Assembly: GCA_038231435.1 (NCBI GenBank)
Contig: JBBRLJ010000014.1
Location: forward strand, 32,001-96,000
Source of the DNA: Planctomycetota bacterium
GTDB taxonomy: Bacteria; Planctomycetota; UBA11346
Reading direction: 5' to 3'
Length of the DNA stretch: 64,000 nt
The translations under genes and the position numbers were made by a program. The notes beneath the pieces are model-generated. The model was given only the letters and a program-made list of their open reading frames with translations, was not told where the DNA came from and searched no databases. Shown in pieces: positions 50,323-63,990 of this stretch. Positions within the stretch are counted from its first letter, which is position 1, and the number at the start of each line of letters is the position of its first letter.

Positions 50323-50754
50323 TCAAAGCCTCTCCGGTAGTCCCGCCCCCGTCCTCCCCGCCACCACCACCAACCCCCTCTCCATCAACATCTGCAGATA
50401 CATCGTCATCAGCACTCTCGCCTCATGGAACGACAGCCGGTGCTCCTGAGCCAGCCAATCGACCAGCGACTCCACCGTCGCCACGCCATCCACCTTCCGC
50501 CAGACCTCGAGTCCGAGTCCGTCCAGGCGGTAGGACTTGGTGCGCCGCAGCTTCAGCAGCGAGGCCAGCGGCCTGAGGACCGGGCCGTAGCTCAGCGGCA
50601 CGGTGAGTGTCGCGGCATCCTGCAGTTCGACTGCCTCGACGCGCTGGTTGCGCACCGGGATGGCTGCGAGGCGCTCGGCGTATGAGAGATCAGCGGCCTT
50701 CGGCGCGCCACGCTTCCTCGCCAGGATCGGGGGCGAGGGGTCAGCCGACGACAT
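50323..50754 (-). CDS. Stand-alone PqqD-family (RiPP recognition element-like) protein
   Basis: YRLDGLGLEVWRKVDGVATVESLVDWLAQEH...YLQMLMERGLV matches the PqqD winged-helix pattern. Confidence 0.8.
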   Translation of the reverse strand: MSSADPSPPILARKRGAPKAADLSYAERLAAIPVRNQRVEAVELQDAATLTVPLSYGPVLRPLASLLKLRRTKSYRLDGLGLEVWRKVDGVATVESLVDWLAQEHRLSFHEARVLMTMYLQMLMERGLVVVAGRTGAGLPERL

Positions 50755-51649
50755 CGTCGGGCTCCAGGCGTGGATGCTTGGGTGGTCCCACCTGCTCGAT
50801 CGCGTAGATACGGCCCTCTGTCGGATCGTGCCACATCCAGGCGTCGCCGGGCCACCAGGCGCCGGTGAGCATTTCCATCCGGCGTTCGCCACGGCGTTCG
50901 AAAGCCGTACGCACGCCGCGCAGGCCACGGAACTCGACCGGTTGCGACGACATCACCCGCGAGCGCGCGCGGGAGAGCAGGCGACGATGCAGGCCCGCCA
51001 GGTCGAGCCCAGCGAGCACCGCGCGATCGAGGCCGATGCGGCGGGCAGTGAGATGCAGATCCTTAGCGGTCTCGAAGGTGATCGCCACGTTCGCCGGTTC
51101 GGGCGAGATCGCCTCGAATGCGAAGGGCTCTGGCAGCTGGAGCGATACTCCGAACAGCTCGTGGCGCCTCGGCCAGGCGTGATTGGGGCGGAACGATTCC
51201 AGGAGCGGCAACAGGGTCGAGGCGGCGAACGCCTCGTCATGCTCGGGAAAGATCCACTGCAGCAGCGTGCGCGTAGAGTGCTGGTAGAGCGAGGCGTAGG
51301 CGGGCAGCCCGGGCCGGTGCCAGGCGAAGAGGAACTGCCCGACGACGCTGGTGCTCAACGCGGCGAAGACCGAGGCGTCCGCGGGCGCGGCCTTCGCCAG
51401 GAAGCGGCGATGCACCTCGTCGAGGATGCGTGGCTGGTCCGGGGTCTGGGGCACGGTCCGCCACACCAGCTGGCCGCGCGGACGCACGCGCTCGTAGAAC
51501 TGGAACTGGCCCTCATCGTTCGCGAAGTGATGGCCGGTGATCTCCCACCAGAGGGGCAGCGTGAACGAGAATCCCCGCCACGACAGCCTGCGGATGCGCT
51601 CGATGTACGGCGGCACGAGCGTCGCGCCTGCCGGCGGATCAGCCGCCAC
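50741..51649 (-). CDS. Hypothetical protein, about 300 aa
   Basis: Overlaps both neighbours, no TM segments, Trp-rich. Start inferred at GTG 51649. Confidence 0.75.
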   Translation of the reverse strand: MAADPPAGATLVPPYIERIRRLSWRGFSFTLPLWWEITGHHFANDEGQFQFYERVRPRGQLVWRTVPQTPDQPRILDEVHRRFLAKAAPADASVFAALSTSVVGQFLFAWHRPGLPAYASLYQHSTRTLLQWIFPEHDEAFAASTLLPLLESFRPNHAWPRRHELFGVSLQLPEPFAFEAISPEPANVAITFETAKDLHLTARRIGLDRAVLAGLDLAGLHRRLLSRARSRVMSSQPVEFRGLRGVRTAFERRGERRMEMLTGAWWPGDAWMWHDPTEGRIYAIEQVGPPKHPRLEPDDVVG

Positions 51650-61775: not shown

Positions 61776-61779
61776 GATG

Positions 61780-63990
61780 TCAGCCGGGAAAGATGCCGGT
61801 GTTCTTCGGGATGAGGCCGGTGTTCATGTAATAGCAGAAGCCGACCAGCAGGATCATCGCCACGGCGATGATCTCACCCATGATCAGGCCGATGAACAGG
61901 GGCTTGAGCGACTGGTAGGTCTTCCCGCCGCCGAAGCGCACGATCAGCTCCTTGGTGACCCAGCCGAGAAAGAACGAGAACCACACCAGGCTCGACGTCC
62001 ACGTGCCCCACATCAGGAAGATGACGGGGTGCAGCGGCCACCACCCGAAACGGAATCGCATCACGGACATCATGATGGTCCCGAGAATGCCGAATCCGAT
62101 CCATCCGAGCTTGGGGCCATGGCCCACGTTGTTCGCCAATTGACCGAGCTTGGCGAGTCCGTGCGTCGACTCCGAGCTCGCGAACTGGCCAGTCTCGTGC
62201 AGCACCGCGAGCCCGGCGGTGGCGATGCTCAGCTTGTTCTCGGGCAGATGCAGCGCGTAATCGTCATTGTGCGCGCCCTTGTTGTACACGCTGTAGGTCT
62301 GGGAGACGAAGCCGATCGCGAAGGCGACCAGGGTCGCGAGCGCTCCGACCATGATGATGCGCGGCAGGCGAATACCCACGTTCTCGGAGATCTTCAGTGT
62401 GTTGGCCACGTATGGCGTGACGCACTCGCGGGCATCGGGGTTGAGCACCAGGCCCATGTACATCACCATGACCCAAGATGTCGGGCCAAGCGCCGGCACC
62501 CCGAGCGTCAGGCTCAGCATGTAGCCGATATCGAAGTTCGCCTGAAGGAACGGGATGCCGGTCTCTGCTACGATGCGAGCGAACACCAAGAAGTAGATCA
62601 TCAGCGACATCGCGAAGATAAGCGCGATGAACCAATCCATGTCGAAGACCAGCACCAGCATGCTCACGAGACCCGCGAAGGCGCCGAGGAATATGCGCGC
62701 CGCCCAGATCGGCTGGCGATCCACCGAAGTGGAACCACGTAGTCCCAGGGCCTTGGCGAGGACGTTCAGGTAATAGTGCCTGCCGGTATACAGCAGGATC
62801 AGGAAGTACGCGCCATACGCGCCTGCGAGGACGCATGACTTGTCGTCGTCTGACACCGTGGTTCCGGTAGCGAGGAAGAATTGCGCGCCCACGATGGTCA
62901 CAGCGATGGTCGACAGACTCATGCTCAGGCTGATCTCGGATGCGATGAAGTACGAGAAGCCGATGATCATGAAGGTGATCCGCTGGTCGCATACCACCCA
63001 CGCGCCCACATTGTTGAGCACCGGAAATACACCGACGATATCCCAGGCTCCCCACTGCAGCGGGATGCGCGGCAGGTAGTTGGGGAACCAGGCTTGCAGG
63101 TAGTTGATCAGGTGGATCGCGAACACCGGAGCGAATCCAGCCCAGAACAGGCGCGAGTAGAAGAGGTCCGACGTCAGCCGCGACCCCGTCCGCTCGATCA
63201 GCGCGGTCGACACCGACGCCATCGGGTAGCTCAGCTGCTCGTGGTGCGCCCACTGGCGATGCACCAGGAAGATCATGGCGATCAGCGCGGTCGCCATCAG
63301 CAGCGCGAGCGGAGTCCAATATACCATCGTCGGCAGCCATTCGCGCAGCGGCGCCTGGGACAACTTGAGGCTCTCGTCGCCTTCCGGAATCCCACGCGTG
63401 AAGCTGCCGTACACCCGTTCGTACGCCTTTCGCACCGCGAGCGTCTCGGCCGTCCCCGGCGCGTGCTTCGTCGGATCCGTTCCCGGATCGTGCCTGAGCG
63501 GGTACACCTGGTCGGGCAGGAAGGACAGGGTCTTGTTGGCCTGCCACTCCGGATGACTGGCCTCGTTCGTCCATGGCATGATCACCGAGTAGTGGAAATA
63601 GCGGTAGAAACTCGAGCCCGGCAACCAGCTGCAGATCAGCATCATGCCGAGCACCACCGCGAGCTCACGGGTGCCGAAGCGCAGGCGGGACCACAGACGT
63701 CCGATGAGAGGATTCCACACCGTGGCCAGGAGCAGGATCAGCGTGAAGGCGCCGATCGGCATGTGGTTGCCGACCAGCGGCGAGAGCTTCAGGACGCGGT
63801 CGTTGGTGTTCGAGTAGAGGCTGATGATCGCCACGCCGATCAGCCCAAAGAGAACCGCCTTGAGGGTGATGCCCGGGCCACCCGGAGCCGCTACGGCCGG
63901 GGAACCTGGTGCAGGCGCCATGGGCGAGTCCGGTGGGACCGTCGCGGGAACGGGCGCCGGCTCGGCGGGGGATGATTCGGATCCGGCCAT
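61780..63990 (-). CDS. Polytopic membrane protein, DUF6785/DUF6784-like, probably OPT-related
   Basis: Many TMs; RQWAHHEQLSYP, RIVAETG, WWPLHP, RFGG. The family name is recalled from these motifs, not searched. Confidence 0.7.
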   Translation of the reverse strand: MAGSESSPAEPAPVPATVPPDSPMAPAPGSPAVAAPGGPGITLKAVLFGLIGVAIISLYSNTNDRVLKLSPLVGNHMPIGAFTLILLLATVWNPLIGRLWSRLRFGTRELAVVLGMMLICSWLPGSSFYRYFHYSVIMPWTNEASHPEWQANKTLSFLPDQVYPLRHDPGTDPTKHAPGTAETLAVRKAYERVYGSFTRGIPEGDESLKLSQAPLREWLPTMVYWTPLALLMATALIAMIFLVHRQWAHHEQLSYPMASVSTALIERTGSRLTSDLFYSRLFWAGFAPVFAIHLINYLQAWFPNYLPRIPLQWGAWDIVGVFPVLNNVGAWVVCDQRITFMIIGFSYFIASEISLSMSLSTIAVTIVGAQFFLATGTTVSDDDKSCVLAGAYGAYFLILLYTGRHYYLNVLAKALGLRGSTSVDRQPIWAARIFLGAFAGLVSMLVLVFDMDWFIALIFAMSLMIYFLVFARIVAETGIPFLQANFDIGYMLSLTLGVPALGPTSWVMVMYMGLVLNPDARECVTPYVANTLKISENVGIRLPRIIMVGALATLVAFAIGFVSQTYSVYNKGAHNDDYALHLPENKLSIATAGLAVLHETGQFASSESTHGLAKLGQLANNVGHGPKLGWIGFGILGTIMMSVMRFRFGWWPLHPVIFLMWGTWTSSLVWFSFFLGWVTKELIVRFGGGKTYQSLKPLFIGLIMGEIIAVAMILLVGFCYYMNTGLIPKNTGIFPG

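Follow-up and report, generated by a model that had tools for sequence, protein, structure and literature searches.

A conserved operon of Planctomycetota joins a type VII ABC motor to OPT-fold membrane proteins and may encode a modular, ATP-energised importer

The ATP-binding cassette (ABC) protein MacB has four helices and no transmembrane substrate channel, according to the passages on this class of protein in PMC5985334. Barley YS1 is described, in the passages of PMC9691689 that treat its transport, as a dimeric, proton-coupled, elevator-like importer in which mutating Asp446, Asp490 or Asp494 impairs transport. Here we describe a locus in which relatives of both kinds of protein are encoded side by side: eight genes, g1 to g8, on the minus strand at 50323..63990 of a 64,000-nucleotide stretch of DNA from a Planctomycetota bacterium (assembly GCA_038231435.1, contig JBBRLJ010000014.1), the whole of which we call the window. 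By fold the motor is a type VII ABC system and its partners are OPT-fold proteins, and the system as a whole matches no described system. In ECF (type III ABC) transporters, a shared energising module serves exchangeable subunits, and the gene layout of the new system fits an ECF-like shared motor, a likeness known here from gene arrangement: one motor cassette, several scattered membrane subunits and no soluble binding protein. The likeness is one of logic, as FtsX and OPT folds stand where ECF systems have EcfT and small S-components, and a large ectodomain is present. We hypothesize, with about an even chance of being right, that the locus encodes an ATP-energised, modular OPT-fold importer of the cytoplasmic membrane. 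The genes, with lengths in amino acids (aa), are as follows.

g0, L001:1284-3434 (= G000:C14:96284-98434), minus strand: second DUF6785/DUF6784 paralogue, predicted OPT fold, about 705-716 aa, beyond the window
Window edge, 63991..64000, minus strand: tail of the 293-nt spacer between g1 and g0
g1, 61780..63990, minus strand: 736 aa; DUF6785+DUF6784; membrane protein of predicted OPT/YS1 fold; proposed exchangeable specificity subunit
g2, 60210..61775, minus strand: 521 aa; FtsX/MacB-type permease with four predicted transmembrane (TM) helices and an extracytoplasmic domain of variable size
g3, 59434..60213, minus strand: 259 aa; ABC ATPase of the LolD/MacB class with its five motifs intact
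g4, 54462..59441, minus strand: 1659 aa; probable signal peptide, PA and pseudo-M28 ectodomain, helical stalk, three extra TM helices, a MacB/FtsX permease and a conserved cytoplasmic C-terminal domain
g5, 52481..54469, minus strand: 662 aa; membrane protein of predicted OPT/YS1 fold; fixed partner gene of g4
g6, 51639..52475, minus strand: 278 aa; second LolD/MacB-class ATPase, motifs intact
g7, 50741..51649, minus strand: 302 aa; soluble, no named family; fixed partner of g8
g8, 50323..50754, minus strand: 143 aa; PqqD/RRE domain, extended at the N-terminus by about 55 residues

An earlier, sequence-only reading of the window had listed eight co-oriented genes in this place and order, and the open reading frames (ORFs) of the window agree with it, as do the Pfam and fold labels. 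Spacings from g1 to g8 are +4, -4, -8, -8, +5, -11 and -14 nt, and the G+C content of third codon positions (GC3) is 0.85-0.90 across all eight genes. Pfam matches are DUF6785+DUF6784 (g1), FtsX (g2 and g4), a weak MacB_PCD (g4), ABC_tran (g3 and g6) and PqqD (g8); g5 and g7 gave no match in the Pfam scan or in a PDB sequence search.

How general is this arrangement? A scan of GTDB genomes with the g5 alignment returned at least 586 relatives, from which the best 80 loci were kept for linkage counts, the denominators being the loci whose contig allowed the test. In all 77 testable loci g4 lies directly ahead of g5, and g3 adjoins g4 in 55/56, g2 adjoins g3 in 55/55, g5 adjoins g6 in 70/72, and g7 and g8 are adjacent or fused in 42/45. 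This arrangement is far beyond chance. The phyla named in the 80 locus titles are Planctomycetota, Verrucomicrobiota (including Kiritimatiellia and Lentisphaeria), Omnitrophota, Fibrobacterota and delta-proteobacteria/Polyangiales, the nearest named relatives being metagenome-assembled genomes of Planctomycetota. Of 301 genomes of the host phylum, 46 carry g5 and 46 have DUF6785 above its cut-off, the two sets overlapping in 45, and g7 occurs in 36, every one a DUF6785 carrier; related genomes are not independent, so no p-value is attached to these counts. The neighbourhood analysis that the sequence-only reading had proposed thus finds the genes together over many genomes and phyla: the system is strongly conserved and its genes are real. 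More widely, the g5 profile reaches 1150 clusters (50% identity) at E <= 0.001 and 885 at E <= 1e-10, and among 10 distant clusters that were looked up, four carry archaeal names: Bathyarchaeia (2), Thermoproteales and Brockarchaeota. These archaeal homologues suggest that an outer membrane is not needed for the system.

What kind of proteins are g1 and g5? AlphaFold2 models of both (pLDDT 92.0 for g1 and 85.8 for g5) match a sole solved fold, that of barley YS1 (HvYS1, PDB 7wsr): VIA-align gives Z 24.2 and rmsd 3.8 over 550 aligned residues for g1 (Foldseek E 5.7e-9) and Z 20.5 and rmsd 4.3 over 552 for g5 (Foldseek E 1.4e-9), with the next VIA-align matches at Z ~6. Identity to YS1 is 11-13%. 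By hhalign both proteins align to the canonical bacterial OPT profile (E 1.8e-9 for g5 and 1.2e-7 for g1); a direct comparison of their two profiles is weak (E 0.004), and we therefore base the kinship of g1 and g5 on the shared fold and the match to the canonical profile. The predicted models accordingly bear out the idea of two large OPT-like proteins, and the matches of the g1 model indicate that DUF6785+DUF6784 is an OPT-fold protein. In the Pfam scan g1 and g5 themselves gave no match to PF03169 (OPT), a domain carried by many g5 relatives. In some g5 relatives, 7/12 long forms, a beta-propeller (Reg_prop, WD40), PDZ or FGE-like domain has been inserted into a single loop close to residue 550 (P0130, P0134, P0135, P0143, P0147, P0149 and P0151), a site that would lie on the side where YS1 caps its pocket. 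Long g5 open frames were also considered as fusions and rejected, as those fetched were overlapping reading frames or loop insertions.

The OPT-fold proteins of this system differ from OPT/YSL carriers in being two unlike subunits, in being encoded with an ABC motor and in their proton site. An alignment of 24 stand-alone bacterial OPTs was given the numbering of YS1 (E 1.4e-49), and its columns were then transferred to g5 and g1 through profile alignments; Asp446 was left out, as already in the consensus of the stand-alone OPTs it falls opposite residues that are not acidic. The columns of Asp490 and Asp494 hold aspartate in 21/24 and 23/24 of the stand-alone proteins, as against 0/72 in g5 (glutamate in 4 and 1) and 0/29 in g1/DUF6785, and a diverse set of 81 g5 representatives has aspartate in 1 and 2, respectively. 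The basic residue that anchors the register beside these columns is K or R in 72/72 g5 sequences and K, R or H in 29/29 g1 sequences. An aspartate of g1 (24/29) sits 14 residues before the anchoring lysine, which is the spacing of the substrate-binding Lys482 of YS1; hhalign puts a gap at that position, and the equivalence is a lead only. Since the proton-site aspartates of YS1 are missing, g1 and g5 are probably not ordinary ATP-independent carriers in their present setting, and here we part from the sequence-only reading, which had taken OPTs in that sense.

The remaining membrane genes have the features of a type VII ABC motor. As in MacB, LolCDE and FtsEX, there is a four-helix FtsX/MacB permease in g2 and in g4, with an extracytoplasmic domain between TM1 and TM2, and as in LolC/LolE the two permease halves are different. 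By Pfam g2 matches FtsX at 5.3e-16, and hydropathy gives it four TM helices; elsewhere it takes forms of 200-400 aa, down to 200-250 aa in several loci. The MacB/LolD-class ATPases g3 and g6 are 55% identical and both keep the Walker A, Q-loop, signature, Walker B/D-loop and H motifs intact. Their best scores are to LolD/MacB/DevA models, yet they stay below every curated NCBIfam cut-off shown. In this the system is unlike MacAB-TolC and LolCDE, as it also is in its surroundings: in 80 loci no MacA, TolC or LolA family recurs within 10 kb, the rest of the genomes lying outside the search. Two additions set it apart from type VII systems in general, namely the fixed linkage to OPT-fold proteins and the pseudo-M28/PA ectodomain, three TM helices and cytoplasmic domain that are joined to the permease in g4.

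This giant protein, g4, deserves a closer look. Its N-terminus matches PA-containing M28 aminopeptidases (2ek8, E 1.2e-15), its C-terminal half matches MacB and LolC (E 6e-12), and PF04389 (M28) is found in 16/39 members. We tested four M28 positions mapped from those alignments, the first His ligand, the bridging Asp and the Glu-Glu pair, which we take to be zinc ligands and the catalytic Glu (two later zinc ligands lie outside the mapping): 0/80 g4 sequences keep all four and 63/80 keep none. By its sequence, then, the M28 domain is a pseudo-peptidase, and it would most simply be a receptor or scaffold. In this it resembles the transferrin receptor (weak match, E 0.02-0.06) and nicastrin, pseudo-peptidases with a receptor role that share the PA and M28 fold and the loss of metal ligands; unlike them, g4 is prokaryotic and fused to an ABC permease. 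The three extra TM helices, which bear invariant phenylalanines, and the conserved cytoplasmic domain, for which there was no usable Atlas match, are candidates for holding the OPT-fold partners. When g5 was modelled together with two g4 fragments (the stalk plus extra helices, and the cytoplasmic domain), the predicted complex scored 0.10 against a mark of 0.32, and we count it neither way.

Could the locus encode a machine for envelope biogenesis or export, with the pseudo-M28 domain as a scaffold or client gate and the OPT-fold subunits exporting, flipping or inserting a substrate? M28-like domains serve as scaffold or client gate in nicastrin and nicalin, and the Nicastrin Pfam family is matched by 3/39 g4 members. 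The type VII systems characterised in the passages of PMC5985334 extract or export. In Fervidibacter sacchari, an FtsX gene and a PqqD gene with near-adjacent accessions, putative counterparts of genes of this system, vary by only ~1.6- and 2.4-fold over eight polysaccharides (PMC11535203). We nonetheless regard this explanation as improbable: the patchy distribution of the genes (46/301) and the many-fold expansion of DUF6785 are easier to square with nutrient uptake than with housekeeping, the 80 loci have no recurring family for biosynthesis, for an adaptor (MacA-like) or for the outer membrane, and the characterised OPT members in the relevant parts of PMC9691689 and PMC13642987 are importers.

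The ECF-like logic of our proposal comes from the modularity of the genes. In 20 more distant g5 loci, g4 precedes g5 in 18, often with g1 alongside, and in at least 9 of these 18 g4-g5 loci (with or without g1) the family ATPase is absent from the fetched stretch; five distant loci carry a single ATPase gene and two carry a pair. The reverse is seen among 20 further loci (19 centred on g7), where 12 have g7-g8-g2-ATPase without g4 or g5; in six of the 12 unrelated genes follow, so that in these the split is not a contig end. The genome G001, a single contig, has the operon g7-g8-g2-g3-g4-g5-g6 with a DUF6785 gene 1.5 Mb away, and in G066 the pairs g4-g5 and g7-g8, the gene g2 and seven DUF6785 genes are scattered. 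Five high-copy genomes hold 7-18 DUF6785 matches each (a few being split hits) versus 1-4 g4/g5 modules, with up to ~14 scattered paralogues per genome. The system is thus modular, with a g7-g8-g2-ATPase motor cassette, g1-g4-g5 cargo modules and scattered DUF6785 paralogues; the eight-gene form with two ATPases is one arrangement of several, and one-ATPase and split arrangements are common. The host genome has a single copy each of g2-g8 and three DUF6785 genes. The third of these, G000:C1:16454-18622 (L002), is ~42% identical to g1 and has no motor genes nearby; its neighbours are GH42, GH92, a GntR/LacI-type regulator and another glycoside hydrolase. In G066, three tandem DUF6785 genes (L135:7564-14138) adjoin an AraC regulator and a xylose-isomerase-like gene. 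Two distant g5 homologues, at L121 and L122, have no adjacent g4 in the fetched stretch, and three DUF6785-like genes follow the one at L122.

How might such parts work together? We propose that g2 and the FtsX half of g4 would pair up into a heterodimeric type VII ABC motor powered by g3 and g6, that the dead M28/PA ectodomain of g4 would catch oligomeric cargo outside, and that g5 would be the fixed OPT-fold partner of g4, with exchangeable DUF6785 paralogues pairing with g5 and setting specificity. The OPT-fold subunits would give the membrane path that type VII ABCs lack, motor movement would take over from proton coupling, and g7 and g8 would act as cytoplasmic adaptors of the motor and not as peptide chaperones. 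The cargo is most likely a small oligomer, be it a peptide, a glycopeptide or an oligosaccharide. We go one step further tentatively, and with somewhat less than even confidence: this would be a new class of primary active importer, in which a type VII (MacB-fold) ATP motor works by mechanical force on heterodimeric OPT-fold elevator subunits no longer coupled to protons, a single motor is shared by an exchangeable DUF6785 library, and an RRE brings motor and cargo module together (with the WxxP motif of g4 as a candidate docking site). Such a class would span bacteria of the Planctomycetota-Verrucomicrobiota-Chlamydiota (PVC) group and several other phyla, with g5 homologues in archaea.

Several observations weigh against the importer. 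The passages of PMC5985334 place type VII ABCs among the mechanotransducers and not among the importers. The contact between OPT-fold subunits and ABC motor is deduced from genes alone, and natural g5 fusions numbered none among 5067 long-protein candidates, a result that is itself weak evidence. The aspartate mapping was carried through profile alignments of 17-18% identity. In yeast Opt1p the residues used for proton coupling are others, namely E177 and Y193 (as reported in the passages of PMC13642987), and other acidic residues are conserved in the new proteins (E71, D331, E436, E450 and E485 in g5; E315, E439 and D482 in g1, in alignment numbering), so g5 and g1 may yet be ion-coupled. The archaeal g5 homologues are known here as sequence records, outside their gene context, and the five high-copy genomes were chosen for their high DUF6785 counts. 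CAZyme (carbohydrate-active enzyme) genes are not significantly enriched around orphan DUF6785 genes: 6/19 loci versus 2-3/20 controls (p 0.13-0.27), and 10/19 versus 7/20 when sugar-type regulators are added, again not significant. That test took the four nearest neighbours of each orphan gene, control stretches from the same three genomes and categories assigned by eye, and L149, one of the 20 loci, was left out because the gene picker missed its DUF6785 gene.

Some of these points lend colour to a two-step uptake, in which the motor works only outside the membrane, MacB-style, on the g4 ectodomain (capturing, stripping or handing over cargo), while g1 and g5 are carriers, ion-coupled through other residues, or facilitators. 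Such a division of labour agrees with known type VII ABC action in the passages of PMC5985334, it has a use for the acidic residues that remain in g5 and g1, and it fits orphan DUF6785 genes that lie far from any motor gene. We consider it rather unlikely. Only 1/46 DUF6785 carriers among the 301 genomes lacks a g5 match, which makes DUF6785 unlike a free carrier; g1 and g5 are without the aspartates that stand-alone OPTs keep; and the extracytoplasmic domain of g2 is nearly gone in its 200-250 aa forms, which is awkward for purely periplasmic work.

The place of g7 and g8 in the proposed importer raises a further question: is g8, a stand-alone RRE (recognition element of RiPPs, ribosomally synthesised peptides that undergo post-translational modification), there to handle cargo peptides? 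It matches Pfam PqqD (7.1e-8) and the structures of PqqD and lasso-peptide RREs (9x90, E 2.4e-5), and the sequence-only reading had made it a cytoplasmic peptide chaperone. To an explanation by RiPP-like export or handling of peptides, in which g8 would chaperone leader peptides, we give hardly any weight. A search of 1207 short ORFs around 120 loci gave no conserved one that could be a precursor, and no RiPP maturase or modifying-enzyme family recurs in the 80 loci, which extends the earlier remark that no maturase was in view; the locus is unlike an RRE-dependent RiPP cluster in just this respect. Furthermore, g8 is tied or fused to g7 (fusions in L048, L079, L091, L125 and L176) and travels with g7, g2 and the ATPase, not with the cargo genes, so that it belongs to the motor cassette, and discrete RRE hits without RiPP machinery are noted for RRE-Finder in the passages of PMC7470986. 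What might it bind? Many RREs bind W/Y/LxxP motifs (binding passages of PMC12710340), and a WxxP linker lies directly after the last TM helix of g4 (residues 1493-1498, window 54940-54970) in 71/72 close homologues. The motif is changed or missing in 6/18 distant homologues, and g5 and g1 also carry such motifs; docking of g8 there is a hypothesis only. As for g7, a PsbP/Mog1-like fold is a weak lead (PsbP in 1/37 members, E 0.039), and its nearest named Atlas clusters score 0.81-0.82.

A complex in which the ATPases and g7-g8 pass on the binding of a ligand outside while little is transported on balance, after the model of BceAB, would also have a use for the lost catalytic (M28) and proton-site residues and for the Reg_prop and PDZ inserts of some g5 relatives. 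We find this sensing or signalling role highly improbable, as the surroundings of the 80 loci show no recurring family of kinases or regulators and the many paralogous OPT-fold subunits favour transport.

A minus-strand TAG at 63995-63993 had been taken as a sign that the operon continues past the window edge; the TAG exists, and the 73-codon TTG frame that it closes (GC3 0.74; no tblastn match in 233 other loci) was rejected as a gene. The upstream sequence, retrieved as had been recommended, holds a ninth gene at a distance: g0, a DUF6785 paralogue that shares 44-45% identity with g1 and is separated from it by 293 nt, is the true upstream gene, itself preceded by a DnaB-like gene (a label from sequence reading). 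Promoter and terminator scans gave nothing above shuffles, and no riboswitch turned up in 25 loci. Directly downstream of the operon, at 48156-49942, an AraC regulator is divergent from a PhyH dioxygenase gene, a pair that is not conserved with the operon, and at 45858-48087 there is an NrdR-like gene and, after it, an ORF of 547 aa that starts like an ATP-cone and is otherwise unfamiliar (the labels of these last two again from sequence reading). Besides members of g7, two kinds of gene recur in the 80 loci, one for oxidoreductases of a Gfo/Idh/MocA family (in 9 loci) and one for a small helical protein (in 3). The former, likewise labelled from sequence reading, comprises 11 ORFs at L048, L051, L062, L065, L079, L086, L087, L091 and L103, a 9/80 frequency against ~3 expected at the host's density, though other hosts may be richer. 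The latter (~165 aa) is encoded between operon genes at L066:3756-4253, L084:12102-12593 and L113:3699-4193 and 12064-12594.

The suspicion that this combination matches no characterised system has held up, in that literature searches found no describing paper and DUF6785 in 0 papers (subscription journals, TCDB pages and bioRxiv supplements being beyond their scope), and the passages of PMC2678158 and PMC7470986 do not describe it. The novelty rests on genetic linkage and predicted folds. Type VII ABC systems have been described as channel-less mechanotransducers and OPT/YSL proteins as proton symporters. If our proposal is true, a secondary-carrier fold has been turned to ATP drive and a type VII system is used for import; both a fold and a function could then be assigned to DUF6785 and DUF6784, and the PqqD/RRE domain would have work to do beyond the making of peptides. 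With the g5 profile already reaching so many clusters at its stricter threshold, the genes described here may represent a common, unrecognised uptake route in uncultured microbes.

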